Shown here one piece after another: positions 1 through 46,716 of a DNA stretch of 46,716 nucleotides. A model generated the notes under the pieces. That model made no database searches. It was not told the origin of the DNA and saw nothing but the letters and a program-made list of their open reading frames with translations. The position numbers and the translations under genes are program-made. Source of the DNA: Syntrophomonadaceae bacterium. Its GTDB lineage: Bacteria > Bacillota > Dethiobacteria > DTU022 > UBA8154. The DNA lies in the NCBI GenBank assembly GCA_007131175.1, contig SLRC01000002.1, positions 1 to 46,716 of the forward strand. The letters are read 5' to 3'. Each line of letters opens with the position of its first letter. Positions within the stretch are counted from its first letter, which is position 1.

Positions 1-1
1 C

Positions 2-514
2 GGTTGTGAAATTATCGGCATCGTGGACCCGGTGGCATCCCAGATTCGACCTGAGACTTTCCGGGAGTTTGTGACTCCGAATTGTCAGGAAGCGAAACAG
101 GTGATTCATGATGCGGGCCGTATTTCCAGTTTATTTATCTGCGGTGATTCCACCAAAGTAATGGAAGAGCTCTGCCAGGTGGGAACACATAGTTTCGCTG
201 TTGATGAACAGATGAATATGAACTACATCCGTGAGCTGGGAGTCAAGTATGGACAGGGCTTTGCTGGAAATCTCAAGTTGACACTGGCCCTCTCCCTGGG
301 GATCATTGACCCCCGTGAGGATACAATAGTTAGTATGGCTGCAGGAGGGAACACTGGCTATACGCTGGCACCTGGCTGAGACATGCCCTTCGATGTTCCC
401 GTGGAGAACATAGACAAAGTATTGGAAGCCAAAGCATGGTTTGAGAAGTTTTACACCAAGTATCCCACGCATGTTAAACCGGCTTACCTGACCCTTGACG
501 ATATGAAAAAGTAA
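2..514 (+). CDS. Uroporphyrinogen decarboxylase/MtaA-CmuA family corrinoid methyltransferase, 5'-truncated by window edge; probable selenoprotein (UGA at 377-379)
   Basis: The frame is open from nt 2 (GCEIIGIVDPVASQI...LFICGD...AGNL). The ORF track stops at TGA 377-379, but the frame continues as GYTLAPG-U-DMPFDVPVENIDKVLEA... to TAA 512-514. This matches the family C-terminal motif (I/L)xPGC(D/E)xPxxxPxEN. The RBS of the next gene directly follows 514. Confidence 0.85.
390..414 (+). promoter_or_regulatory. Putative bacterial SECIS hairpin
   Basis: ATGTTC (393-398) pairs with GAACAT (406-411) around CCGTGGA, extended by C391-G413 and T390-A414. The G-containing apical loop starts about 20 nt after the UGA. 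Confidence 0.6.
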
Positions 515-525
515 GGGGTGATGAA

Positions 526-852
526 ATGAGTGAAAAATTAGTTGTTGATGTTCTGACCCTTGATGCCGTGCAGTGTGCGGCCTGCCAGTATATGTTTGAG
601 GCTATTTCCGCCCTGCCGGAAGATGTCAGGCAACATGTGGAGTTCAAGGAATGGACAATTAAAAACGCAGAGGGAATTGGCAAGTTCATGGAGCTGAACG
701 GAAAGGTTCTGCCCACAATTGCCATTAAGGGAGAACTGGTCTTTGAAAGTCTCATTCCAACCTTTGAAGAGCTTCTTGATGCTCTCGAAGCGAAAGCAAC
801 ATCGGAAGAATTAAAAACGGCAATTGCCAAGGCCCGGGCGGAAGCCAGTTAA
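526..852 (+). CDS. Thioredoxin-fold protein (CAAC)
   Basis: TLDAVQCAACQYM CxxC motif and LPTIAIKGELVF cis-Pro strand; RBS AAGGGGTG upstream. Confidence 0.8.
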   Translation: MSEKLVVDVLTLDAVQCAACQYMFEAISALPEDVRQHVEFKEWTIKNAEGIGKFMELNGKVLPTIAIKGELVFESLIPTFEELLDALEAKATSEELKTAIAKARAEAS

Positions 853-868
853 AGGAAAACGAAGAAAT

Positions 869-906
869 AAGAGGGGTAGAAGGATTAATCTTCTTTTATC
901 CCTCTT
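869..906 (+). terminator. Intra-operon stem-loop (terminator or mRNA-stabilising hairpin)
   Basis: AAGAGGGGTAGAAGGA (869-884) pairs with TTCTTTTATCCCTCTT (891-906): 16 bp including G-U pairs, 6-nt loop, pyrimidine-rich tail. Confidence 0.5.
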
Positions 907-922
907 TCCCTTCCTGTTTAGG

Positions 923-1792
923 ATGGTGGTTATATTGCCCTATCCCCAGTGGCTGCTCAAAAAGATACCTAATTATGATGACTTTTATCAAACCGGATGG
1001 GCACTTACGGGATTAGATACTGTATGCGAACGTGCTGCCTGTCCAAATATATACGAATGCTTTGGGGCCAGGCACCTTACATTCCTTATATTAGGCAGTA
1101 TATGCACGCGTAACTGTGCCTATTGCGCTGTGACCCATGGCCTTCCAACGGATGTGTCCATTGAAGAAGCGGACCGGGTTGTTTCTGCAGTTCTTAAATT
1201 GGATTTGACATATGTGGTTATTACTTCCGTAACCCGCGATGATCTTGAGGACGGAGGTGCATTTCACTTTGCCCGGATTGTGGAATCATTGAAGAAGCAG
1301 ACGGAAGCTGGCATAGAGGTTTTGATTCCGGATTTTGGCGGCTGCCGACTTTCCCTTAAGCGGGTGGTCAGGACAAAACCTGATGTTATAGGGCATAACC
1401 TGGAGACGGTGAGACGGCTACAAAATAAGATCAGGCCCCAAGCTGCTTATGAACTCTCCCTTTCCGTATTGCGTACGATTAAAGAAATGGATGGAACAAT
1501 ATTGACAAAGAGTGGTCTGATGCTGGGCCTTGGGGAAGAAGATGATGAAATCCTGGAAACGATGCAGGATATCCGGGAAACGGGATGTGATGTGCTTACT
1601 CTTGGTCAATACAGGCAACCGGGAGAGGAGCAAATATCGGTTAACCGATTTATAATGGAGGAAGGTTTTGAATATTTGCGTGCATCAGGTCTGGCCATGG
1701 GATTTAAAAGGGTGATTTCCGGTTCCTATGTGCGAAGTTCCTATGGTGCGGGAGAGATAAAAGATCTGCTGGAGGAAAGGTATGCTGTCTGA
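923..1792 (+). CDS. lipA: Lipoyl synthase (radical SAM)
   Basis: CERAACPNIYEC (CX4CX5C), CTRNCAYC (CX3CX2C) and C-terminal VRSSY. Start is probably ATG 923 or TTG 935 rather than 824. Confidence 0.95.
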   Translation: MVVILPYPQWLLKKIPNYDDFYQTGWALTGLDTVCERAACPNIYECFGARHLTFLILGSICTRNCAYCAVTHGLPTDVSIEEADRVVSAVLKLDLTYVVITSVTRDDLEDGGAFHFARIVESLKKQTEAGIEVLIPDFGGCRLSLKRVVRTKPDVIGHNLETVRRLQNKIRPQAAYELSLSVLRTIKEMDGTILTKSGLMLGLGEEDDEILETMQDIRETGCDVLTLGQYRQPGEEQISVNRFIMEEGFEYLRASGLAMGFKRVISGSYVRSSYGAGEIKDLLEERYAV

Positions 1793-2603
1793 ATGGCGGA
1801 TTCTGTATAGCGGTGCCGGCGGCGGGCCTTATAACATGGCAGTGGATGAGGTTCTTTTAAACGGGGTTATCACCGGAAGTTCTCTGCCAACACTGCGTTT
1901 TTATAACTGGAAGAACGACTGCCTCTCCTTTGGTTTTTTACAAAGAGTGGATGAGCAGATTCGAAAGAACTGTGGTAAGCTTAATGTGGAGATGGTGCGG
2001 CGGCCCACCGGGGGTTATGCAGTTTTGCATGGCCGGGACCTTTGCTATAGTATTGTTGCACCGTTGGATGGTTCGCTGGCTTTTCTCCCGGAAGATGCGT
2101 CACGCCGGGTTGGGGCTGCCCTTGCCACAGGGCTCTGCCACCTTGGAGTGCCGGTTGCACTTTCCTTGCATGAAGAACGGCAAGATTATACAGTGGAAGA
2201 AATATCCTGTGCGGCAGCCGTTTCCCAAAATGAGCTAATTGTAAAAGGGAAAAAAATTGCCGGCAGTGCATCTTTGCGCCGTAAAGGATGTTATTTGCAA
2301 CACGGGTCCATATTTATGGAATATTGTGGAGAGCGCATTTCTGAGCTGCTGGGAAACGCCGCTGGCGATGCTTCCCTTAGCAGCAGGTCTGAAGGGTTAA
2401 GACAGGTATGGGATGAAAAGTTTTCTCTCATGGAGCTCATAACAGCACTTAGGGATGGCTTCAAAAGGCAGCTAAATGTAAATATGGTTCCGGCAGGACT
2501 GGGCGCTTTAGAAAGAGCAGCAACTTATGAATTAATGTACAAAAAATACACAACCCTTGATTATAGGAAGCAGCGGGGGAGGCTTTCACAGCAACATGCT
2601 TGA
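1782..2603 (+). CDS. Lipoate-protein ligase family, LipM-like octanoyltransferase
   Basis: NMAVDEVLL, PTLRFYNW, VRRPTGGYAVLH, GKKIAGSA (catalytic Lys), LQHGSI; Cys in ISCAAA. Confidence 0.85.
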   Translation: MLSEWRILYSGAGGGPYNMAVDEVLLNGVITGSSLPTLRFYNWKNDCLSFGFLQRVDEQIRKNCGKLNVEMVRRPTGGYAVLHGRDLCYSIVAPLDGSLAFLPEDASRRVGAALATGLCHLGVPVALSLHEERQDYTVEEISCAAAVSQNELIVKGKKIAGSASLRRKGCYLQHGSIFMEYCGERISELLGNAAGDASLSSRSEGLRQVWDEKFSLMELITALRDGFKRQLNVNMVPAGLGALERAATYELMYKKYTTLDYRKQRGRLSQQHA

Positions 2604-3975
2604 CCTCATAGTGATTGGCGGCGGTGCAGCAGGCTATGCAGCTGCGCTGCGAACAGCTCAGTTGGGTGGAAAAGTAATACTGGTGGAGAAAGAAAAACTG
2701 GGAGGTACCTGTTTGCACAGGGGATGTATTCCCTCCAAGGTGCTTTTTCAGCAAGCTGCAATTGTTGAGAATTACCGGACTGCTTTAAAGAGCGGGCTGT
2801 TTGAAGATGGGGGGCACATCAACCTTGAGGCCGTGGCCTGCCGCCAGGATGAAGTGATAGGGCGGCTCTTTCTTGGATTAGAGGATCTATTCAGAAAAAG
2901 AAGTATTCCGGTTATCAATGGTAGTGCCATGGTTGAGGGGCCGGGCCGTGTTCGGGTGGCAGACGATCAAGAAGTATACGAAACCAGGAACATACTCATT
3001 GCCGGAGGCTCACGGGAAAGGACCTTTCCATTTTCCGGTATGGAAGGGATCCGGGGGGCAGAGGAAAGCTTGAAACTACCCCAACAGCCATGCCGCGTAG
3101 CTGTGATCGGTGGCGGTAATACAGGCCTGGAATTAGCTGCTGCCTATGCCACCTTTGGTTTTAGCGTGACTGTTGTGGAAAAGGAAAAGGTCCTTCTTCC
3201 GGCACTGCAGGATGAAGAGATAAGTAAGTGGCTGGGGTTTTTACTTAAAAAGCGCGGTTTGAATATCCTCACCGGCACAAATATTAACAACATTGAGAAG
3301 ATAGTAAAAGACGTTAAAAGTGAACTTAAAATAATATATTCCCGTTCGGGAAAAGAGCATGTATTTTGGGTGGACCTGATCATTAACGCATCAGGACGGG
3401 AACCCTGTTTAGATAACTTTGCCCTTGACTGCCTTGGGGTTAAGCACACAGCTAATGGTATTAACGTAAACAAGCATATGGAAACAAAGGTTAAGGGAAT
3501 ATACGCAGCAGGTGATATTACCGGACCTCCCATGCTTGCCCACCGTGCCTATTTTGAGGGAATAACTGCGGCGGAAAATGTTATGGGAATGGATCGGAAG
3601 CTGGATTTGAAAGCTGTGCCTGCATGTCTGGCCGCAAGGCCCGGTGTAGCCTGGGTTGGTCTTACTGAAAAACAGGCCAGGGATGGAGGGCTAAACCCGC
3701 AGGTGGGCCGGTTTCCTTTCAGTGCCAGCGGTGCTGCCGTATTAAAAGGGGAGGAAGAAGGCTTTGTTAAGCTAATCGCCGGTGAGGACGGTATTATTCT
3801 GGGGCTGCAAGTGCTGGGTAACGCTGCGGAAGAGTTGATTATGGAAGGGACACTGGCTGTGCGCCACGGCCTCAGTGTAGAGCAGTTAAGGGAGACAATA
3901 CACCCCCACCCCACACTCCATGAATCGATTTGGGAAGTATGTCTTTCCCTGGAGGGCTTTCCTATGCATGGCTAA
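2596..3975 (+). CDS. lpdA: Dihydrolipoamide dehydrogenase
   Basis: DLIVIGGGAAG FAD motif, GGTCLHRGCIPSK redox disulfide, IYAAGD, HPHPTLHE. Start ATG 2596 overlaps the upstream stop. Confidence 0.93.
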   Translation: MLDLIVIGGGAAGYAAALRTAQLGGKVILVEKEKLGGTCLHRGCIPSKVLFQQAAIVENYRTALKSGLFEDGGHINLEAVACRQDEVIGRLFLGLEDLFRKRSIPVINGSAMVEGPGRVRVADDQEVYETRNILIAGGSRERTFPFSGMEGIRGAEESLKLPQQPCRVAVIGGGNTGLELAAAYATFGFSVTVVEKEKVLLPALQDEEISKWLGFLLKKRGLNILTGTNINNIEKIVKDVKSELKIIYSRSGKEHVFWVDLIINASGREPCLDNFALDCLGVKHTANGINVNKHMETKVKGIYAAGDITGPPMLAHRAYFEGITAAENVMGMDRKLDLKAVPACLAARPGVAWVGLTEKQARDGGLNPQVGRFPFSASGAAVLKGEEEGFVKLIAGEDGIILGLQVLGNAAEELIMEGTLAVRHGLSVEQLRETIHPHPTLHESIWEVCLSLEGFPMHG

Positions 3976-3999
3976 CGCATTTCAAAAGGAGAGAAGCAT

Positions 4000-4527
4000 A
4001 TGATCAGAAACATTTCTTTTATGGGTGCAAATTTACAACTGGAGGACAGTTTGTTTTATCATACTTCCTTCGATTACTGGATTAGTATAAATCGGGACGA
4101 AGGTCTGGTTACTTTTGGCCTCACCCCTGCTTCTCATATTAAGGAAGGCGGTTACCATTCATTTGAATATTTTACTCAGGAGGGGGAGACTGTAGTGCAA
4201 GGCGAGCCCTTTGCCCTGGCGATCACGGGAAAACTAAAGTATCTGGACGTGGTGGCCAGTGGGGTTATTATTTCCCTGAACAGGGAATTGGAGCAAAGCA
4301 CAGCTCCTTGCCAAAATGCGGTAGGCGACAGTTGCTGGCTCGCTTCCATACGCACAGGCAAAGAGGTAGAAATGTTACCCGACCTCATTGAATTCAGCTA
4401 TTACGTTGAACTGCTCCGCATGTACGAAATGCATCGTACCCCTCCGGGGACAAAAGGAGCCGTATCACCCACCTGCCGGAGCGTGTACGAGTCTATCCGG
4501 AAGCAAAAAGGAGTAGAGGGAGGTTGA
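4000..4527 (+). CDS. Divergent glycine-cleavage H-like (lipoyl carrier) protein with C-terminal extension
   Basis: LFYHTSFDYWI..VTFGLT and GETVVQGEPFALAITGKLKYLDVVASGVIISLNREL align with the GcvH pattern G..V..G..F..vEsvK.......PvsG.V...N..L; flanked by lipoylation genes. Confidence 0.65.
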   Translation: MIRNISFMGANLQLEDSLFYHTSFDYWISINRDEGLVTFGLTPASHIKEGGYHSFEYFTQEGETVVQGEPFALAITGKLKYLDVVASGVIISLNRELEQSTAPCQNAVGDSCWLASIRTGKEVEMLPDLIEFSYYVELLRMYEMHRTPPGTKGAVSPTCRSVYESIRKQKGVEGG

Positions 4528-4531
4528 AAGC

Positions 4532-5368
4532 TTGAAATATGCTCCCGCTTTTTTCGGAGAGCTAATAGGAACTTTTATTCTGGTTTTTTTAGGTTGCAGT
4601 ACTGTAGCCGTTACCGTCCTTTTTTCAGCTCATACCAGCCTATTCCATGTTGCTATGCTCTGGGGTATGGCTGTTACGCTGGCTATCTATGCTACGCGAC
4701 ACCTATCCTGTGCCCACCTCAACCCTGCTGTTACGTTGGCGATGGTGATAAGCAGACGTATGTCCATAGATAAGTTGCCTGTATACTTGTTAGCACAATT
4801 ATGTGGAGCTTTTCTGGCGGCTGTGGCAGTTTACATGCTTTTTTCACAACCCATTGCGGAATTCGAACTGATTAACGGTATTACGCGCGGTACGCCGCAA
4901 TCTGTAGCTACAGCAATGATATTCGGTCAATTTTATCCTAACCCGACTCTGGAAATACCATTAATTATCTCTACAGGGGGAGCCTTTGCTGCTGAGGCGG
5001 TCGGAACTTTTATCTTCATTTTCATGATCCTTGCATTGACTGAGGGGTGTAATGTTGGACGCCCTGATGATAATCTTGCCCCTTTGTTTGTAGGCGTAAC
5101 GCTGGCTGTCATAATCTCGATTATCGCCCCTTTAACTCAAGCGGGCCTGAATCCAGCCAGGGATTTATCACCCCGTGTTTTTGCCTACCTGGCCGGTTGG
5201 GATGGAGTGGCTTTCCCTGAGCATTGGCATGGGTTTTTTACTGTTTATGTTCTGGGACCGCTGGCCGGTGGTACGATTGCATCATTGTTGTTTTCCTGGT
5301 TAATCCATCCCCTGATGAGGGGCAAAGATACAGAACTTAACAGTTGTTGTCCTGTTACTGATGATTAA
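4532..5368 (+). CDS. MIP family channel (aquaglyceroporin-like)
   Basis: GELIGTFILVFLG, two NPA boxes (AHLNPAVT, GLNPARD), about six hydrophobic helices; TTG start behind GGAGG. Confidence 0.93.
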   Translation: MKYAPAFFGELIGTFILVFLGCSTVAVTVLFSAHTSLFHVAMLWGMAVTLAIYATRHLSCAHLNPAVTLAMVISRRMSIDKLPVYLLAQLCGAFLAAVAVYMLFSQPIAEFELINGITRGTPQSVATAMIFGQFYPNPTLEIPLIISTGGAFAAEAVGTFIFIFMILALTEGCNVGRPDDNLAPLFVGVTLAVIISIIAPLTQAGLNPARDLSPRVFAYLAGWDGVAFPEHWHGFFTVYVLGPLAGGTIASLLFSWLIHPLMRGKDTELNSCCPVTDD

Positions 5369-5478
5369 GTGGAAAAGCATCTTTAGACGGGTCAGGAACA
5401 AAGGAATTTTAACAGTATAAAACGAATATATTTTTTGCAAATCCCTTTTTCGTTTTACTAAAGGAGCCAGGTGGAAAA

Positions 5479-5820
5479 ATGACAGCCAGGGCAAAAGTAT
5501 TTGCGGGAGCTTGTGGTTTTACCAGCGTGGTAAAAGCTACCCGCATGGATAAAAAGCATGTAAGTGTTAAAATCATATCTGCATGCGAAATGCTGCGCAA
5601 AATGAATGATGATTTAAAAATATTGGATTGGCGGCGGGATCTTTTTTGTAATATCCGTAACTCGGTGGTTTATCGTTCTGCAGACAAGTACCTTATGCAC
5701 ACTGACTGCCCTGTTCCCAGTGCCATTGTCAAAGTAATCCAGATTGAGCTTGACGGCATGGTTCCAATGGATGTTAACATGAAATTTGAAAAGATAAACG
5801 AAGATAATGATGTTTTATGA
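5479..5820 (+). CDS. Conserved small Cys-containing protein (DUF6951-like)
   Basis: GACGF, SACE and HTDCPVPSAIVK motifs; RBS AAGGAG/AGGTGG. Family name is from memory. Confidence 0.6.
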   Translation: MTARAKVFAGACGFTSVVKATRMDKKHVSVKIISACEMLRKMNDDLKILDWRRDLFCNIRNSVVYRSADKYLMHTDCPVPSAIVKVIQIELDGMVPMDVNMKFEKINEDNDVL

Positions 5821-5853
5821 TTTTGAGGATATTTAAAAGGAGGCTTGTTGCTA

Positions 5854-6555
5854 ATGGTATTTGAGGCTGCCTTTTTATCTTCTTCCCTGGATAACGTGAA
5901 ATTGAAAAAAAGAATTTTGGAGCTAGGTGCTCACGAGGTTGGGATTGGCGATGTGAGTGTGGGCATTGCACCGGAGCTGTCACATATGCCACTGGCTATA
6001 TCCCTTGCCATCCAACATCCTTCTCCTCACTCTCAAAATAAAGGTGCTTACCCCTATGCCCACTTTTCCATGACAATTGACCGCCGTTTACTGGAAATTC
6101 AGCGTATTATAACCAGGGGGATACGCCGTCAGGGTTGGCGGGTTTTGCCCATCCCGCCTGATTCCTGCCGTCATGAATCCACTTTTATTTCGAGAATATT
6201 TAACCTGTTTCCTCACAAAACAGCCGCCACCTGTGCAGGCCTGGGTTGGATTGGTAAAAGCGGACTATTAATCAGTTACCGCTTCGGTCCACGTCTCAAC
6301 TGGGCCACAATTCTTACCAATGCCCCCCTGAAAGCAAGCAACAAACCGGTTAAAAAAAGTTTCTGTGACCAGTGTACCTGTTGCGTTGAAGCCTGCCCTG
6401 CCAAAGCTATTAAAAACAATAATTGGGAGTACACCACAAGTTATCGTACAATGATTGATGTTGATAAATGTGCCTCAGAACTGCAAAAAAACAGGAAACG
6501 TTACGGACAGTATGCCTGTGGTATTTGTATGCTGGTTTGTCCAAAGGGCCATTAG
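5854..6555 (+). CDS. QueG/epoxyqueuosine reductase-like 2x[4Fe-4S] protein
   Basis: HKTAATCAGLGWIGKSGLLI, GPR, CDQCTCCVEACP and C..C...CGICMLVCP. Confidence 0.8.
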   Translation: MVFEAAFLSSSLDNVKLKKRILELGAHEVGIGDVSVGIAPELSHMPLAISLAIQHPSPHSQNKGAYPYAHFSMTIDRRLLEIQRIITRGIRRQGWRVLPIPPDSCRHESTFISRIFNLFPHKTAATCAGLGWIGKSGLLISYRFGPRLNWATILTNAPLKASNKPVKKSFCDQCTCCVEACPAKAIKNNNWEYTTSYRTMIDVDKCASELQKNRKRYGQYACGICMLVCPKGH

Positions 6556-7319: not shown

Positions 7320-8279
7320 ATGAAGAGGAGTAAGGAGATAATCGGGGTGCCTGTTATCAGCATTTCAGCCGGAATACAGGTTGGGGTTGTTAAGGGGCTG
7401 GTTATAAATCCCCAGCAAAAAACTGTTGAATTTCTGCTGCTCAACGAAGAGGAAAACAGTAAAGGGATGAAAGGTATCCCCTTTCGCTACGCTGAAGGGG
7501 TTGGGGAATATGCCGTTACAGTGGAAAATGAAAGTGTGATGATGGAAATATCACGTATTGGAATCTTACAAGAACTACAGGAAAAAAATATTAACATTAT
7601 CGGCACTAAAGTTATTACCAGAAAAGGGAAGTACCTGGGCGATGCGAGCGAATATTCAATTGACATTGAGACTGGGATCCTTAAGGAAATTTATTACCAG
7701 GCCGATGATGAAAACGAATACAAAATTCCTGTTGAAAAAGTCATAACTCTGGGCACTGAAGTACTTGTAGTGGAAGTGATGGGGGCTGGTGAAGCCACTA
7801 CTTGTACTGAATCAGATCAAATAAATTTTAAAGGGGGAGATGAGAGATCATCCGGGATTCAGTGTATGGAACAAGTAATTTCTGAGCAACCTGATCCACC
7901 AAGGCCAGTAACGGAGCAAATTGAAGTTGTAACGCCTTTAGCTGGAATGTTTCAGGATATTCCAAATGAAAAGCCTGCTGCCCATGCTGTTAACCCTGCG
8001 GCCGAACAGCCTGATAAGGACACATTAAACCTCGAAGCAGGCCTCACTGAAAAGGAAATGCTGAGTTCCTCCACTCCCGGTGACCTGGATCCCGCAGACG
8101 TATTTATTCAGAGACAACGGCAGTTTTTGATCGGCAAAACCCTGCTTAAGGATCTTCAGTCAAAAGAAGGGGAGGTCATTGCCTGGGAAAATGAGTTGGT
8201 GACAGAGCACCTTTTTGACAAAGTTTACAAAATAGGAGCACAAAAGATAATGGAGCTGGCCATGTCTGTGAGGGAATAA
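7320..8279 (+). CDS. PRC-barrel domain protein
   Basis: Two PRC-barrel repeats (IIGVPVISISAGIQVGVV; IIGTKVITRKGKYLGD), an acidic linker and C-terminal FLIGKTLLKDL. Confidence 0.8.
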   Translation: MKRSKEIIGVPVISISAGIQVGVVKGLVINPQQKTVEFLLLNEEENSKGMKGIPFRYAEGVGEYAVTVENESVMMEISRIGILQELQEKNINIIGTKVITRKGKYLGDASEYSIDIETGILKEIYYQADDENEYKIPVEKVITLGTEVLVVEVMGAGEATTCTESDQINFKGGDERSSGIQCMEQVISEQPDPPRPVTEQIEVVTPLAGMFQDIPNEKPAAHAVNPAAEQPDKDTLNLEAGLTEKEMLSSSTPGDLDPADVFIQRQRQFLIGKTLLKDLQSKEGEVIAWENELVTEHLFDKVYKIGAQKIMELAMSVRE

Positions 8280-8548
8280 GATAAAAAAACGGAAAGAGAC
8301 CATTATGTACCCCTTTGCAGGTTTATCCTGTTAGGCCGGACTTTACTGTTGCACAATTGACCGATTTCAGTCAAATGACTGCTTTCGCCCGGACCGTTCT
8401 GAAAGGTATCGGTCAGGCCATTACATAATAATTTATTTGCCGCTGCGATGCTGAACGGACAATGTCTGGGACCGGATGAAATTCTTCCCGGTATTGGTGG
8501 TGGTGTCTGTAATACTTTAGGATTGGCAGTGGGGGGGGTGAGTGATTT

Positions 8549-10339
8549 TTGTTGACAAACGAAAGGGATGGCCAGATTGGTGTTGTTGAAGGAAAGATAA
8601 AAATCATTGCCCCCAAAGGGGGGGGTAAGGGGGCCGCACTATACCCTCCTGAAGAAGGGGGTGTAATTTATGTAAACGGGGTGGAACTGGAAAAACAAAT
8701 TACATGTGATTCCCAGGATATTGTTACCTTAGAACCCACCACCTATATGGAGGATGCCCGTTTGGAAGTAAAAATTTCCCCTGATGGACTTAATGCCCTG
8801 GCCGCTGTTTTTCCACGCAGAGTTGTTACATATCAACTAAAGGATACTCCCCTTTGTGCAAGCTTAAAGCCTCAATTGGAAAAAAGTGAGAAAGTGGAAA
8901 AACTGCTTACCCTGGAACAGGCTGAGCAGGAGTTGAGAAAACAGAACGTACTGCACGGGCTTAGCATGGCCGCCCTCAACGAGCTTGTTAAAACCGCTAA
9001 CGGCGAATTTAATACGGTCGCCTGGGGACTGGATAAACAGGAAGGCAAAAACGGACGCCTTGAGTTTGTTGTGAACCATGAAGTGGAAGTTATTAATTAT
9101 GAAGAGGAAAACACGAGGGCAGATTTTCGGGAAAAATATCGCTACCCGTCAGTAAAAAAAGGGGATGTGATCGCCATTCTCCACCCACCGGAGGAGGGAA
9201 AGCCCGGGCAGCGGGTAACGGGTGAAGTGATTGTTCCCAAACCTGTAAAAGCTGCCAAGGTCCGGTGTGGAGAAGGAACGGAGTTTGCCGATAATAATAA
9301 AGATATTGTTGCACTGAAAGACGGCCGTATGATTGTTGCGGGTTATCATATTAAGGTTGTTAACCTGCTTGTTCATAAGGGCGATGTGAACATGGAAAGT
9401 GGCAACATCCGCTTTAACGGGGATGTTCGTATTTTTGGAAATGTGACGGAAGGGATGATCGTGGAAGCCAGCGGTTCATTGATTGTAGATAACAATTGTT
9501 ATGGTGCTACCCTTAATGCCGGCAGCGGTATACACGTTGGCAAAAATGTGGTTAAGTGTGACGTACAGGGAGGAACATTTTTTGCCCTGCTGCGGGAAGT
9601 GCTGATTCTTGTCAATCAGCTCACGGAAGAGCTGGACGGGTTTATTGAAAACCTGAAGCAGATATTTAAGGGCCTGGCTGAGAAGGGGCAAAAGGTTGAT
9701 AATGCTTATCTGAAGCGTATTATCAAGATGCTTTTTGAAAAAAGCAACGGTTTGCGTGATACATTAATGCTCCTTGAGCGCCGCCTGGAGCAAAATAGCT
9801 TTTCTTACCTGGACCACACTAAAGAGGCCATAGAATCGCTGCAGGCCTTTTTTTCATTGGACATGGAAAAATGTAACCCCGACGAACTGATAAAGTCTTT
9901 AAAAATATTCAGAACCCTTTCCGAGGGATACCATGAAGAACTGAAAGAATTGCCTTTACTTAGTATTTCATATACACAGAACAGCAATATCCGGCACAGC
10001 GGCCATATTGAAATCACCGGGGCTGGGAGCTATTTCTCCAGTATGCATGCCGGGGGCGAAGTGAGGGTGCAGGGTGTTTTTCGCGGGGGCACTATTAAGG
10101 CGGAAAGCAATGTAAAAGTCAACGAATTTGTCTATATTTCCACTGCAGCAGAGAGTGGTGAAAAAAAGGACGCGATCAGGATTAAAGTTCCGGCACAATC
10201 TGCTATCCATTTCAACCTGGTCCATGAAGATACGACCGTCCAGGTTGGGAAGATGGTTTACCGTTTTGACAGGGAGTATTCAAAAATAAAAGTCAGCTTC
10301 GATCCTCAGGAAGGGTTGTTAAAATTAACCAACCTATAA
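8549..10339 (+). CDS. FapA/DUF342 family protein
   Basis: DFREKYRYPSVKKGDVIA, G..G..VTGE, GDVNMESGNIRFNGDVRIFGNV, a coiled-coil insert and beta-helix repeats. Confidence 0.85.
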   Translation: MLTNERDGQIGVVEGKIKIIAPKGGGKGAALYPPEEGGVIYVNGVELEKQITCDSQDIVTLEPTTYMEDARLEVKISPDGLNALAAVFPRRVVTYQLKDTPLCASLKPQLEKSEKVEKLLTLEQAEQELRKQNVLHGLSMAALNELVKTANGEFNTVAWGLDKQEGKNGRLEFVVNHEVEVINYEEENTRADFREKYRYPSVKKGDVIAILHPPEEGKPGQRVTGEVIVPKPVKAAKVRCGEGTEFADNNKDIVALKDGRMIVAGYHIKVVNLLVHKGDVNMESGNIRFNGDVRIFGNVTEGMIVEASGSLIVDNNCYGATLNAGSGIHVGKNVVKCDVQGGTFFALLREVLILVNQLTEELDGFIENLKQIFKGLAEKGQKVDNAYLKRIIKMLFEKSNGLRDTLMLLERRLEQNSFSYLDHTKEAIESLQAFFSLDMEKCNPDELIKSLKIFRTLSEGYHEELKELPLLSISYTQNSNIRHSGHIEITGAGSYFSSMHAGGEVRVQGVFRGGTIKAESNVKVNEFVYISTAAESGEKKDAIRIKVPAQSAIHFNLVHEDTTVQVGKMVYRFDREYSKIKVSFDPQEGLLKLTNL

Positions 10340-46475: not shown

Positions 46476-46553
46476 GGAGCCGTGGTGTAGTCAGGTTAAC
46501 ATGCCGGCCTGTCAAGCCGGAGATCGCGGGTTCAACTCCCGTCGGCTCCGCCA
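46476..46553 (+). tRNA. tRNA-Asp(GTC)
   Basis: Acceptor GGAGCCG/CGGCTCC, anticodon arm CCGGC-CT-GTC-AA-GCCGG, TTCAA loop, G73, encoded CCA. Confidence 0.97.
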
Positions 46554-46559
46554 TATTAT

Positions 46560-46635
<76 letters not shown>

Positions 46636-46641
46636 ACACTT

Positions 46642-46716
46642 GCGGAAGTAGCTCAGCGGTAGAGCATCGCCTTGCCAAGGCGAGGGTCGCGGGTTCAATT
46701 CCCGTCTTCCGCTCCA
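46642..46716 (+). tRNA. tRNA-Gly(GCC)
   Basis: Acceptor GCGGAAG/CTTCCGC, anticodon arm TCGCC-TT-GCC-AA-GGCGA, U73, encoded CCA. Confidence 0.97.

Follow-up and report, generated by a model that had tools for sequence, protein, structure and literature searches.

A predicted anaerobe operon for B12-dependent methyl transfer around a selenocysteine enzyme, with its own lipoyl carriers and thioredoxin-like partners

Results

The window, the 46,716 nucleotides at positions 1 to 46,716 of contig SLRC01000002.1 (Syntrophomonadaceae bacterium, GCA_007131175.1), begins in the middle of the gene for UroD2. The seven genes listed by the first-pass annotation are all present, and two more recurring genes follow (Table 1). 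The last 121 nucleotides of C57, from the same assembly, are 100% identical to window positions 1-121, and the reading frame is continuous across the join. UroD2 orthologues are full-length and collinear in five genomes. Sequence comparison indicates that positions 2-6555 form the distal third of a single predicted operon of ~17 kb and 21 genes, the 5' end of which lies on C57 immediately 3' of arginine-biosynthesis genes. The operon starts with CobA, a triple-HTH regulator, two corrinoid proteins, the RACo activase, an MtrH-like protein and UroD1, continues with two DGC-domain proteins (one with selenocysteine, Sec), GcvH1, two UxxC thioredoxin-like selenoproteins and UroD2, and ends with a CxxC thioredoxin-like protein, LipA, Lpl, Lpd, GcvH2, MIP, the IscU-like DUF6951 protein and a QueG/reductive-dehalogenase-like ferredoxin. 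The same order and content are found in five further genomes from three families of the class (G143, G135, G126, G109 and G108), where the linkage of lipoyl genes with the methyltransferase is conserved.

Table 1. Features of the window and of the adjoining contig C57 (L003 coordinates).
Feature	Position	Strand	Evidence
Seven genes of the first-pass annotation	2-5368	+	all co-oriented, tightly packed
UroD2, first 227 codons	C57, L003:19308-19988		join via 121-nt overlap
UroD2, MtaA-like methyltransferase, URO-D fold, C-terminal 170 codons	2..514	+	Pfam PF01208 URO-D, E 2.2e-18
In-frame TGA (predicted Sec), motif LAPG-U-DMP	377..379	+	conservation, Cys paralogue
Two UxxC thioredoxin-like selenoproteins (TrxU)	C57, L003:18554-18859 and L003:18880-19179		Trx3 is the Cys paralogue
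Trx3, small thioredoxin-like protein, VQCAACQ (CxxC)	526..852	+	translation, paralogue and neighbourhood comparison
LipA, lipoyl synthase	824..1792	+	NF004019, 345.9 bits (cut-off 203); TIGR00510, 305.1 (cut-off 310.25)
Lpl, LplA/LipM-type lipoate or octanoyl protein ligase/transferase	1782..2603	+	Pfam LplA-B_cat, E 1.3e-24
Lpd, dihydrolipoyl dehydrogenase	2557..3975	+	TIGR01350, 428.5 bits (cut-off 408.8)
GcvH2, GcvH-like lipoyl carrier	4000..4527	+	NF045810 'GcvH-related protein', 109.3 bits (cut-off 150)
MIP-family channel	4532..5368	+	Pfam MIP, E 6.1e-43; TIGR00861, 173 bits (cut-off 171.25)
DUF6951 protein (beyond the first-pass range)	5479..5820	+	Pfam, E 3.4e-29
Ferredoxin-type double 4Fe-4S protein	5845..6555	+	Pfam Fer4_16, E 6.2e-9; PDB 5D6S and 8Q4H, E ~4e-9

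The first-pass annotation had proposed to look upstream for a corrinoid protein, a RACE/ASKHA activator and a second methyltransferase. All three are encoded on C57, as two corrinoid proteins, a RACE-type activase (RACo), an MtrH-like folate methyltransferase and a zinc-type MtaA (UroD1). The MtrH-like protein is of the methyl-corrinoid:tetrahydrofolate methyltransferase type (NF002142, 368.5 against a cut-off of 287). UroD1 passes TIGR01463 (241.6, cut-off 235.4) and NF004889 (265.6, cut-off 244) and retains LHICGE and PGCD when compared with MtaA, which marks it as an MtaA-type enzyme of the standard thiol type with a His-x-Cys...Cys zinc site. Such His-Cys-Cys sites have been interpreted as S- or Se-methyltransferase sites, and the Cys ligands are, as a rule, swapped for carboxylates in O-methyltransferases (PMC10418091, Results).

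UroD2 departs from this pattern. Aligned with MtaA (PDB 4AY7), it reads FFICGD where MtaA has LHICGN, and APG[U/C]D in place of APGCGI; the zinc-binding His is replaced by Phe and the second zinc-ligand Cys by selenocysteine. The in-frame TGA is kept in 6/6 UroD2 orthologues, from the window's genome and the five others, with strong sequence conservation 3' of it that extends over 45 codons, and a UroD2 paralogue has Cys at this position. It is therefore best read as a selenocysteine codon and not as a chance stop. Among 78 motif instances in 85 fetched loci, 74 have TGA and four Cys, and in public gene calls UroD2-type proteins stop at the TGA and are 309-311 residues long. The window's genome encodes selA, selB, selD and tRNA-Sec. 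The hairpin 3' of the UroD2 TGA was no better than shuffled sequence, with z values from +0.3 to -1.3 for SECIS-like hairpins. UroD2 is a selenocysteine enzyme previously unlisted; its close Sec-type homologues include some attributed by the sources to Desulfomonile tiedjei.

In 70 of 74 metagenome loci, the UroD2 gene is immediately followed by one for a Trx3 homologue. CAAC is found in every copy of Trx3 and U in 9/9 copies of TrxU. The DGC2 orthologues vary more (U in two of the six, Cys in three, Ala-Gly in one), and structure comparison of the DGC proteins gave no relative indicating a role. In five loci, DGC2 and GcvH1 are separated by a ThiS-family gene.

Within the lipoyl module, the family match of LipA sets in only at about residue 38-41, and translation therefore probably starts later than at TTG 824. 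The likely start of Lpd is ATG 2596. Its translation contains the redox motif CLHRGC and a C-terminal HPHPTLHE, and it stays below the cut-off of the MerA model (303.7 against 454.45). Lpl is encoded within the cluster in two of the five other genomes (G135 and G126, tblastn), with the match elsewhere in the genome in G143, G109 and G108. GcvH2 scores 20.0 against Pfam GCV_H, under the cut-off of 22.2; its conserved lysine (AITGKLKY) and its C-terminal Cys motif (SPTCRSVYESIRKQK) are both kept in loci of other lineages.

Genes for glycine cleavage or a 2-oxoacid dehydrogenase could have accounted for the lipoyl genes. There are none upstream, and gcvT, gcvP and E2 were not found in the window or the rest of its assembly (77% complete). 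We searched four high-quality genomes for such clients of the lipoyl proteins, and three of them lack gcvT, gcvP and a 2-oxoacid-dehydrogenase E2 (PF00198): G143 (one contig, 100% complete), G109 (96%) and G135 (99%). In these three, the only LipA-level match and the only GcvH-type matches are the cluster copies, and for these reasons the lipoyl machinery of the cluster looks dedicated. The fourth, G108, has a separate gcvT-gcvH-gcvP set and a second lipA. Taken together, a single conserved operon carrying its own dedicated lipoyl module is very probable.

The channel scores 89 against the aquaporin Z model, below the cut-off of 256, and carries the motifs HLNPAV and GLNPARD. NPARD is typical of aquaglyceroporins. 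MIP homologues were found by tblastn in the G143 and G135 loci and in 7 of 80 metagenome loci. Next to it, the DUF6951 protein has invariant C12, C36, H74 and C77; its predicted model (pLDDT 91) best matches IscU chains in the PDB (probability 0.99, E 0.017, TM ~0.5), suggesting an IscU/SufE-like fold. DUF6951 occurs in 30 of 86 neighbourhoods. The 4Fe-4S protein, which adjoins DUF6951 in G143 and G108 and is the last gene recurring with the cluster, is a relative of QueG and reductive dehalogenases in their C-terminal half, with 59.4 bits (RDH) and 56 bits (QueG), both under the cut-off. Such ferredoxins recur in 12 of the 86 neighbourhoods.

Of 149 genomes of the class, eight carry a UroD2 orthologue, and each of the eight has GcvH-related matches as well (E <= 1e-18). 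G107 (88% complete), G005 (93%) and G082 (92%) have GcvH-related matches and no UroD2 match to the query used. UroD2 is widespread, and the pair of Sec methyltransferase and thioredoxin-like protein far commoner than the lipoyl genes. Of 21 well-flanked loci, those with 6 kb or more on each side, 16 encode a flavoprotein disulfide reductase of the Lpd, TrxB-like or GltD-like kind and five show none; ten have a GcvH-like gene and 11 show none. Lpd occurs with GcvH in 8/8 loci. The relay proposed by the first-pass annotation has to be modified here, since a TrxB-like or GltD-like flavoprotein occupies the place of Lpd in most other lineages. In-cluster lipA, lpl and lpd would accordingly be a lineage-specific variant of the way in which a more general thiol/selenol relay is fed. 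Other recurrent families in the 86 neighbourhoods are DGC (21), DUF2284 (23), CobW GTPases (32) and Thioredoxin_3 matching the MTH895/ArsE family (23). With the Thioredoxin_3/ArsE-type, DGC and DUF2284 metal-binding proteins and the CobW GTPases, a metal or metalloid substrate fits equally well. The regulators are of MerR, PadR, sigma-54 and two-component types, the MerR-type gene occurring in six loci with no assigned ligand.

Discussion

The gene content points to an anaerobe operon for a B12 methyl-transfer system built around a Sec enzyme, with its own lipoic-acid carriers and thioredoxin-like partners. We found no published description of this combination, which is novel. The first-pass observation is confirmed and its interpretation partly supported; the mechanism set out here is the one that we infer.

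The corrinoid protein, RACo, MtrH, UroD1 and UroD2 would form a core that exchanges methyl groups between tetrahydrofolate and a small methylated compound of sulfur or selenium, most likely in the catabolic direction, from substrate to methyl-THF. Candidate substrates are methanethiol or dimethylsulfide-type compounds, or methylselenides. The Cys/Sec pair of UroD2, at the place of the zinc-thiolate of MtaA, may bind the sulfur or selenium of the substrate covalently as a selenosulfide, after which Co(I) would take the methyl group. We know of no experimental precedent for this chemistry. The adjoining thioredoxin-like proteins would resolve either the sulfur or selenium that stays on the enzyme or the Cys-Sec bond so formed. 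In the window's lineage, the dihydrolipoyl arms of the two GcvH-like carriers could keep them reduced, with Lpl and LipA of the cluster lipoylating both carriers and Lpd connecting them to NAD(H). MIP would pass a small neutral substrate or product. A thiol/selenol redox relay terminating at the Cys/Sec site of UroD2 is somewhat probable; the whole, methyl transfer with such a relay on methyl-S/Se compounds, is our best explanation and a tentative one. Methylated sulfur or selenium compounds are favoured over arsenic, and the predicted IscU/SufE-like DUF6951, the ThiS-family protein and the His-Cys-Cys site of UroD1 point to sulfur or selenium carriers. The choice of substrate is nevertheless a guess, at best possible, because no substrate-specific gene was found, be it a known methanethiol or dimethylsulfide marker, a binding protein or a characterised regulator. 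Since no reductant is required for a net catabolic transfer of methyl from a thioether, the heavy redox equipment would fit a reductive or oxidative step that we cannot name.

Closest to the idea of the first-pass annotation is metal or metalloid handling, in which the zinc-less Cys/Sec site of UroD2 binds thiophilic As(III), Sb, Hg or Te directly and exchanges methyl groups with the corrinoid, either in a SAM-independent methylation from methyl-THF or in the demethylation of methyl-metal(loid)s. The thioredoxin-like proteins and the dihydrolipoyl dithiol would supply two electrons for each step or remove the element that is bound, and MIP would carry the neutral species, in keeping with its NPARD motif. 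UroD2 has lost the zinc His, yet retains Cys and Sec, and DGC, DUF2284, CobW and Thioredoxin_3/ArsE are recurrent families of Cys-rich, metal-binding type. The disulfide cascade of ArsM, which is recycled by thioredoxin, offers a precedent. A 2026 review lists an arsenite methyltransferase/DUF2284 fusion selenoprotein and implicates many recent selenoproteins in metal or metalloid resistance (PMC13188914). However, nothing arsenic-specific emerged, with no ArsR, Acr3, ArsC, MerR-metal or efflux genes among the annotated recurrent families of the 86 neighbourhoods; Lpd passes its own cut-off and not that of MerA, UroD1 is a standard thiol-type MtaA, and 21 genes with RACo and four selenoproteins are a heavy outfit for detoxification. 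We consider this reading unlikely. It is very unlikely that the lipoyl thiol itself is the methyl carrier, UroD1 and/or UroD2 (de)methylating the dihydrolipoyl arm of the GcvH-like proteins in parallel to MtaA with coenzyme M, and Lpd and the thioredoxin-like proteins only resetting the carrier. UroD1 does pass a methylcobalamin:CoM methyltransferase subfamily model in bacteria where a CoM-using pathway is unexpected, GcvH-like carriers accompany the methyltransferases in several lineages, and in three of the four high-quality genomes tested no other client enzyme is visible for the lipoyl proteins. Still, there is no evident enzyme to use an S-methyl-lipoyl group, GcvH-like genes are missing from 11 of the 21 well-flanked loci, and the universal partner of UroD2 is a thioredoxin-like protein, not GcvH.

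The operon might instead serve another class of C1 donor, through demethylation of methoxylated aromatics or halomethane conversion, the QueG/RDH-like protein and the Cys/Sec or lipoyl dithiol handling a halogenated or methylene-level intermediate. The layout matches that of bacterial O-demethylase-type systems, with MtrH, corrinoid protein, RACo and URO-D methyltransferase; UroD1 passes the MtaA/CmuA model, the ferredoxin recurs as described above, and Desulfomonile tiedjei, to which close Sec-type homologues are attributed, is a bacterium capable of dehalogenation and O-demethylation. The mec cassette, which serves dichloromethane, likewise brings together several URO-D methyltransferases, a corrinoid protein and MTII but, as listed in Table 2 of PMC9768040, has no thioredoxin or lipoyl genes, unlike the present cluster. 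UroD2 also keeps Cys and Sec where O-methyltransferases have carboxylates (PMC10418091), and neither aromatic-acid transporters nor ring-degradation genes recur, making this alternative rather improbable. Finally, the neighbourhood could be fortuitous, with the lipoyl genes serving glycine cleavage or 2-oxoacid dehydrogenases elsewhere and the TGAs being true stops of a truncated methyltransferase, as the second lipoyl set of G108, the public gene calls and the incomplete assembly of the window would allow. This is hardly credible, contradicted as it is by the absence of gcvT, gcvP and E2 from G143, G109 and G135, the gene order kept across three families, the conservation beyond the TGA, the existence of Cys forms and the TGA in 74 of the 78 motif instances.

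The cluster extends across two contigs

The window opens partway through an operon. Contig C57 of the same assembly ends in 121 bases that match window positions 1-121 exactly, and the frame of UroD2, the MtaA-like methyltransferase with a predicted selenocysteine (Sec), crosses the junction between C57 and C188, the contig that starts with the window. Its start lies in an ATG region at L003:19308, L003 being the locus on C57. The ORF list and the family scans bear out the seven co-oriented genes that the first-pass annotation had placed at the start of the window and had combined into a candidate system of a Sec-methyltransferase, a thioredoxin, a lipoyl relay, and an MIP channel. The partners expected upstream of such a system, a corrinoid protein, an activase, and a second methyltransferase, are all encoded on C57, and the glycine-cleavage or 2-oxoacid dehydrogenase genes that could otherwise account for the lipoyl genes are absent from that upstream region. 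From CobA to the ferredoxin, the cluster comprises 21 genes over ~17.2 kb.

Genes of the cluster and the preceding arginine operon. Genes on C57 (locus L003) are listed in their order and all lie on the same strand; positions without a prefix are those of the window.
Gene product	Position	Strand	Evidence
Arginine operon	L003		argC, J, B, D, F, G, H families
CobA/BtuR	L003		after the arginine operon
Protein with three HTH_3 domains	L003		after CobA/BtuR
Two corrinoid proteins	L003		after the triple-HTH_3 protein
RACo reductive activase	L003		all four RACo Pfam domains present
MtrH-family methyltransferase	L003		NF002142 368.5 vs cut-off 287
UroD1, full-length MtaA-type	L003		TIGR01463 241.6 vs 235.4; NF004889 265.6 vs 244
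Two DGC-domain proteins (DGC1, DGC2)	L003		after UroD1
GcvH1, GcvH-like lipoyl carrier	L003		Pfam GCV_H E 4e-13
Two small thioredoxin-like genes	L003		one in-frame TGA each: VQ-U-TPC, VR-U-VSC
UroD2, start	L003		after the two TGA-bearing thioredoxin-like genes
UroD2, URO-D/MtaA-type methyltransferase, last 170 codons	2-514	+	Pfam E 2.2e-18
Thioredoxin-like protein (Trx3), 108 aa, VQCAACQ	526-852	+	no Pfam family; NF047660 36.8 bits vs cut-off 105
Lipoyl synthase (LipA)	824-1792	+	NF004019 345.9 vs cut-off 203; NF009544 336.3 vs 210; TIGR00510 slightly under, 305.1 vs 310.25
LplA/LipM-type protein (Lpl)	1782-2603	+	LplA-B_cat E 1.3e-24
Dihydrolipoyl dehydrogenase (Lpd)	2557-3975	+	TIGR01350 428.5 vs cut-off 408.8; MerA model 303.7 vs 454.45
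Divergent GcvH-like protein (GcvH2)	4000-4527	+	Pfam PF01597 20.0 vs cut-off 22.2; TIGR00527 16.9 vs 115.85; NF045810 109.3 vs 150
MIP channel	4532-5368	+	TIGR00861 173 vs cut-off 171.25
DUF6951 protein, recurs with the cluster	5479-5820	+	E 3.4e-29
Double-4Fe-4S protein, recurs with the cluster	5845-6555	+	kin to the C-terminal half of QueG and reductive dehalogenases

The Rfam search revealed no riboswitch within the cluster, and a promoter and terminator scan remained at or below chance level. A T-box leader (L003:305-601, 96.3 bits) precedes the argC-argH operon upstream. Past the cluster, window positions 7320-10339 hold two ORFs that look unrelated to it, one of 319 aa (7320-8279) and one of 596 aa (8549-10339), and three tRNA genes in a row (46476-46713) occupy the very end of the window. 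Downstream of the cluster in G109, another genome of the class, a cobalamin riboswitch (L038:19238-19424, 112.5 bits) lies just after an extra URO-D-family gene that follows GcvH2.

UroD2 is an MtaA-like enzyme with a predicted selenocysteine

A TGA at 377-379 interrupts UroD2, which when read through continues as LAPG-U-DMPFDVPVENIDKVLEAK... to the stop codon TAA at 512-514. This TGA occupies the same position in all six orthologues, from the window genome and five further genomes of the class, and conservation runs to the C-terminus. The profile of 16 UroD2-family sequences (alignment A2) aligns along its full length with the Methanosarcina enzyme MtaA (PDB 4AY7, E 4e-33), and UroD1, the zinc-type MtaA encoded upstream, aligns with the same protein end to end (E 1e-51). 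The MtaA stretch LHICGN is replaced by FFICGD in all 16 sequences of A2, and alignment to 4AY7 places APG-(U or C)-D of the UroD2 family at APGCGI. UroD1 retains LHICGE and PGCD, the His-x-Cys...Cys zinc ligands. The two MtaA stretches contain the zinc ligands, so that UroD2 has lost the zinc His to Phe and kept one Cys, with the predicted Sec taking the place of the other. Both stretches coincide with the His-Cys-Cys zinc site that PMC10418091 (Results) ascribes to S-methyltransferases of the superfamily. Scored separately because UroD2 is split over two contigs, its C-terminal and N-terminal parts reach 63.0 and 87.9 with TIGR01463 (cut-off 235.4).

A search of a 5.8-billion-protein collection with UroD2 as a query gave 2472 matches at E <= 1e-20. 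Among the best 120 of these, most are 309-311 aa long with 87% query coverage, which indicates that gene callers cut UroD2 homologues at the TGA; UroD2 would thus be a missed selenoprotein family whose public gene calls end at the Sec codon. The rest of the best 120 measure 341-355 aa. Some of the best 120 bear the source names Desulfomonile tiedjei, Desulfomonilaceae, and Desulfobacteraceae, and one protein match is named Ca. Contubernalis alkaliaceticus. The six full-length forms in A2 have Cys (five) or Trp (one) at the Sec site. We also scanned metagenome contigs and found 510 UroD2-encoding stretches, 80 of which we examined. Together with the five genome loci, these 80 yield 78 motif instances, of which 74 have TGA at the site and four have Cys; nine loci lie outside the motif pattern used.

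In G143, a further genome of the class, a UroD2 paralogue has Cys at the TGA position (APGCNMP); this third UroD2-type gene (L035:9560-11496) lies directly before MIP at the end of the cluster. G135 has a second UroD2-type copy on another contig, C38.

Selenocysteine decoding and the thioredoxin-like partners

The window genome encodes the Sec machinery, with selA (607 bits), selB (376.6), and selD (379.1) all above cut-off and one tRNA-SeC (tca) identified by ARAGORN. As selD (G000:C72:7556-8482, minus strand) itself contains one in-frame TGA, it presumably encodes the Sec form of selenophosphate synthetase. Predicted hairpins begin 13-21 nt past each of the four TGAs of the cluster, none of them more stable than shuffled sequence (z +0.29 to -1.27). 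On the strength of the sequence comparisons, we regard the TGAs as genuine Sec codons.

The thioredoxin-like genes upstream of UroD2 carry a TGA in nine of nine copies, and the downstream copy always reads CAAC. Their best named match is NF047660, 'HUIPC motif thioredoxin-like (seleno)protein', at 21.7-36.8 bits (cut-off 105), and their motifs, VQUTPC, VRUVSC, and VQCAAC, differ from the one in that name. A gene of the Trx3 type, the thioredoxin-like gene after UroD2, directly follows UroD2 in 70 of the 74 metagenome loci with at least 350 nt downstream, the six shorter loci being left out of the count. Over all loci, 15 of 73 thioredoxin-motif instances are UxxC, and in three metagenome loci (L089, L093, L101) the Trx3-type ORF begins only past the CxxC region, so that the downstream partner may itself be a selenoprotein in some lineages.

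DGC2 (L003:17447-18039) remains open for 94 codons beyond an in-frame TGA (FV-U-DC). Among six orthologues, this site is TGA in two, Cys in three, and Ala-Gly in one, and DGC2 may therefore be a DGC-domain selenoprotein. The available passages of the 2026 selenoproteome review list no such protein (PMC13188914).

A lipoyl module probably dedicated to the cluster

Five genomes (G143, G109, G135, G108, and the window genome G000) were searched for three markers of other lipoyl-dependent enzymes: gcvT, the domain of GcvP, and PF00198, the catalytic domain of E2. None of the three occurs in G143 (one contig, 100% complete), G109 (96%), G135 (99%), or G000 (77% complete); G108 contains a separate gcvT-gcvH-gcvP set and a second lipA. 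The cluster lipA is the only LipA-level match in G143, G109, and G135, and the two cluster genes are their only GcvH-type matches. The LplA-B model has a match in all five genomes searched with it, inside the cluster in G135 and G126 and outside it in G143 (one), G109 (one), and G108 (two). By these comparisons, the lipoyl machinery looks dedicated to the cluster, and the hosts seem to retain lipoate synthesis solely for it. The cluster would provide a third setting for lipoic acid, with GcvH-like lipoyl proteins outside glycine cleavage and 2-oxoacid dehydrogenases. Glycine cleavage and the reductive glycine pathway were dropped as clients of the lipoyl genes, given the lack of gcvT/gcvP.

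The lipoyl lysine is kept in all 12 aligned copies of the putative lipoyl carriers GcvH1 and GcvH2. The two differ in the Cys motif conserved at their C-termini, which is DHCGAGARVMRRNR in GcvH1 and SPTCRSVYESIRKQK in GcvH2. GcvH2 falls below the glycine cleavage H cut-offs of both TIGR00527 and PF01597; GcvH1 lies below the former (43.0 vs 115.85) and above the latter (49.7 vs 22.2). NF045810, named 'GcvH-related protein', is the best named match of GcvH2 and gives 71.1 for GcvH1; its cut-off of 150 is exceeded in none of the 149 genomes of the class. The translation of Lpd, which scores above the TIGR01350 cut-off, reads CLHRGC and HPHPTLHE, in keeping with the redox-active CxxxxC and the C-terminal His-Glu region that define dihydrolipoyl dehydrogenase. 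Lpd was also considered as MerA, an assignment dropped because its score lies under the MerA cut-off.

Accessory proteins

The predicted structure of DUF6951 (pLDDT 91) finds its best solved relatives among IscU scaffold proteins (prob 0.99, E 0.017, TM ~0.5), followed by SufE/CsdE-type sulfur acceptors. Its invariant residues C12, C36, H74, and C77 have a spacing that resembles that of the cluster ligands of IscU. The model of DGC1 (pLDDT 89.6) has no relative in the PDB, the best hits at E 0.06 being SIS or flavodoxin-like alpha/beta folds. MIP scores above the TIGR00861 cut-off and contains the two NPA motifs as NPAV and NPAR in its translation, with all subfamily models under cut-off (AqpZ 89, LarD 48.9, Gla 47.9).

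Conservation in the class and in metagenomes

A tblastn search with 29 reference proteins revealed the same gene order in all five further genomes, drawn from three families of the class. This order is regulator, corrinoid protein, RACo, MtrH, UroD1, DGC1, DGC2, GcvH1, one or two UxxC thioredoxin-like genes, UroD2, the CxxC thioredoxin-like gene, LipA, (Lpl), Lpd, and GcvH2. DUF6951, the ferredoxin, and MIP follow 3' of GcvH2 in a variable order. The linkage of lipoyl genes with the methyltransferase, on which the proposal of a single system had depended, is thus kept in these five genomes. UroD2 orthologues occur in eight of 149 class genomes. Each of the eight likewise contains GcvH-related matches (E <= 1e-18), which share a contig with UroD2 wherever both are assembled. 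Three genomes, G107 (88% complete), G005 (93%), and G082 (92%), have GcvH-related matches at this level without a UroD2 match to the query. Because related genomes are non-independent, we give no co-occurrence statistic.

We clustered all ORFs of 86 neighbourhoods and annotated the representatives; the resulting counts are lower bounds because many loci are short.

Recurrent families in the 86 UroD2 neighbourhoods (lower bounds).
Family	Neighbourhoods
Corrinoid protein	42/86
RACo	39/86
MtrH	38/86
CobW-type GTPase	32/86
DUF6951	30/86
GcvH-like	26/86
DUF2284	23/86
Thioredoxin_3 (82 aa)	23/86
DGC	21/86
TrxB-like flavoprotein	20/86
Response regulator	13/86
QueG/RDH-like ferredoxin	12/86
PAS histidine kinase	11/86
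LipA	9/86
Lpd	9/86
MIP	7/86
Lpl	6/86
GltD-like NAD(P)H flavoprotein	6/86
ThiS-family protein	5/86

In the subset of 21 loci flanked on either side by 6 kb or more, RACo is found in 19, a corrinoid protein in 18, UroD1 in 17, MtrH in 16, one of three kinds of flavoprotein disulfide reductase in 16, a GcvH-like protein in 10, and Lpd in 5, an ORF-based count that undercounts small and Sec-interrupted genes. Lpd is accompanied by GcvH in eight of eight cases among the 72 neighbourhoods in which UroD2 was located, and carriers of the GcvH2 type, with the lysine and the C-terminal Cys, also occur in clusters using a TrxB-like enzyme. One lineage (L055, L056, L057, L058, L060) has a ThiS-family gene between DGC2 and GcvH1; its cluster, preceded by a MerR-type regulator, also contains a TSCPD-metallophosphatase fusion and a GltD-like NAD(P)H flavoprotein.

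Comparison with described systems

Like MtaA, MtbA, and MtsA, UroD1 and UroD2 are encoded together with corrinoid proteins and a reductive activase. Unlike them, UroD2 has Phe for the zinc His, Sec for the second Cys, and a near-universal thioredoxin-like partner, and its hosts are bacteria not expected to have a CoM pathway. The MtrH/MtgA-like methyltransferase II, the corrinoid protein, and RACo are shared with bacterial methyl:THF systems such as O-demethylases and MtgABC, with MtrH scoring 160.7 bits against MtgA and the corrinoid proteins 175-189 bits against MtgC, all under cut-off. In contrast to those systems, the cluster uses thiol-type URO-D proteins on the substrate side, including one with Sec, and adds a redox relay whose parts are thioredoxin-like proteins, lipoyl proteins, and a flavoprotein.

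GcvH-like carriers with their own lipoylation genes are known outside glycine cleavage as LbpA of sHdr sulfur oxidation and GcvH-L of sirtuin/macrodomain operons. sHdr systems contain two carriers in a sulfur context, with Hdr-like genes and LipS1/LipS2 beside them. The cluster resembles sHdr systems in its two carriers and sulfur-related context, and differs from sHdr-LbpA in having Lpd within the cluster, a canonical LipA instead of LipS1/LipS2, and a corrinoid methyltransferase partner. Neither Hdr-like genes nor LipS1/LipS2 are present in the 17-kb cluster, and the LipS2 model gives 24.6 bits for its LipA (cut-off 270). A parallel to the proposed relay is offered by glycine, sarcosine, and betaine reductases, Sec enzymes of small methylated compound catabolism in anaerobes, in which a thioredoxin system supplied by NAD(P)H reopens the Cys-Sec bond. 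Unlike the cluster, these reductases have no corrinoid and cleave the substrate reductively at a carboxymethyl group, and their protein families are unrelated to those of the cluster. The gene list of one cluster of this type is given in PMC9768040.

Type 1 mlp clusters, defined from sequence-similarity-network clusters by at least Mlp2 and Mlp3, and sdm genes occur in anaerobes mostly with Sec machinery, and methyl-sulfur or methyl-selenium compounds are their proposed substrates, according to the available sections of PMC10418091. In those sections, the Mlps are invariably His-Cys-Cys and are not described as selenoproteins, whereas UroD2 lacks the His and has Sec; type 1 mlp clusters are without an H4folate methyltransferase, whereas an MtrH-family gene is part of the cluster here (PMC10418091). 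The terms 'lipo', 'GcvH', and 'glycine cleavage' are absent from the text of that mlp preprint (PMC10418091). None of these nearest described systems combines the parts found here.

New in corrinoid methyltransferase systems are the widespread Sec form of an MtaA-like enzyme, its near-universal thioredoxin-like partner, and the dedicated lipoyl/Lpd module. Our full-text literature search found no account of a Sec-containing MtaA-like enzyme or of corrinoid methyltransferase clusters with a lipoyl/GcvH module; the source paper of NF047660 and NF045810 (Haft and Tolstoy, 2025) may hold a prior mention, as may Haft and Gwadz (2023) or supplementary files. MtaA, CmuA, PF01208, and uroporphyrinogen are absent from the available part of the 2026 prokaryotic selenoprotein review (PMC13188914), and the cluster goes unmentioned in the retrieved passages of the papers describing the genomes of Ca. 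Contubernalis alkaliaceticus (PMC10608574) and of Ca. Syntrophonatronum (PMC6295475).

A proposed mechanism and its alternatives

The predicted gene products form a complete corrinoid methyl-transfer set of a carrier, an activase, a folate-side enzyme, and a thiol-type MtaA, joined to the Cys/Sec-bearing UroD2, thioredoxin-like proteins, two proteins of lipoyl-carrier type and the enzymes for their maturation, a channel, and Lpd. From the near-universal pairing of UroD2 with a CxxC/UxxC protein and the frequent NAD(P)H-dependent disulfide reductase, we infer that the Cys/Sec pair turns over via a selenenylsulfide or a substrate-Se adduct, which thiol exchange would resolve. The electron path in the window lineage would connect NAD(H), Lpd, lipoyl-GcvH, the thioredoxin-like proteins, and UroD2 in this order, and could run in either direction, tying B12-dependent methyl transfer to a thiol/selenol redox relay.

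As substrates, we favour methylated sulfur or selenium compounds because UroD1 has a thiol-type site, because IscU/SufE-like and ThiS-like carriers accompany the system, and because of the kinship with Mlp/SCMT. In our own scheme, UroD1 would take the first methyl of a dimethyl compound. Methanethiol or methylselenol would bind to Sec of UroD2 as Se-S-CH3 or Se-Se-CH3, from which Co(I) would take the methyl, and the relay would free the remaining chalcogen. A competing explanation is (de)methylation of a metal or metalloid; ArsR, Acr3, and ArsC are all missing among the annotated recurrent families of the 86 neighbourhoods. In another, the lipoyl group would itself be the methyl carrier, and a third assigns the cluster to some other substrate class. 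Selenium salvage, as in the sdm system, was dropped, as four selenoproteins would be unlikely equipment for selenium starvation. To our knowledge, most of the enzymes by which sulfate reducers and alkaliphiles turn over methanethiol, dimethylsulfide, and methyl-metal(loid)s under anaerobic conditions have yet to be identified, and the cluster offers a concrete candidate for them.

A far-reaching reading, which we consider improbable, would make UroD2 the founder of a widespread, unrecognised group of selenoenzymes, in which a redox Cys/Sec pair stands in for zinc and methyl transfer is coupled to an NAD(P)H-driven two-electron thiol/selenol step. In its boldest form, the pair would bind a thiophilic element directly for SAM-independent, methyl-THF-driven methylation or for anaerobic demethylation of arsenic, mercury, or selenium species, with dihydrolipoyl as a chelating reductant. 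If that form held true, lipoic acid would have acquired a new job as a protein-bound chelating reductant, and the cluster could possibly account for the long-sought anaerobic demethylation of these species.
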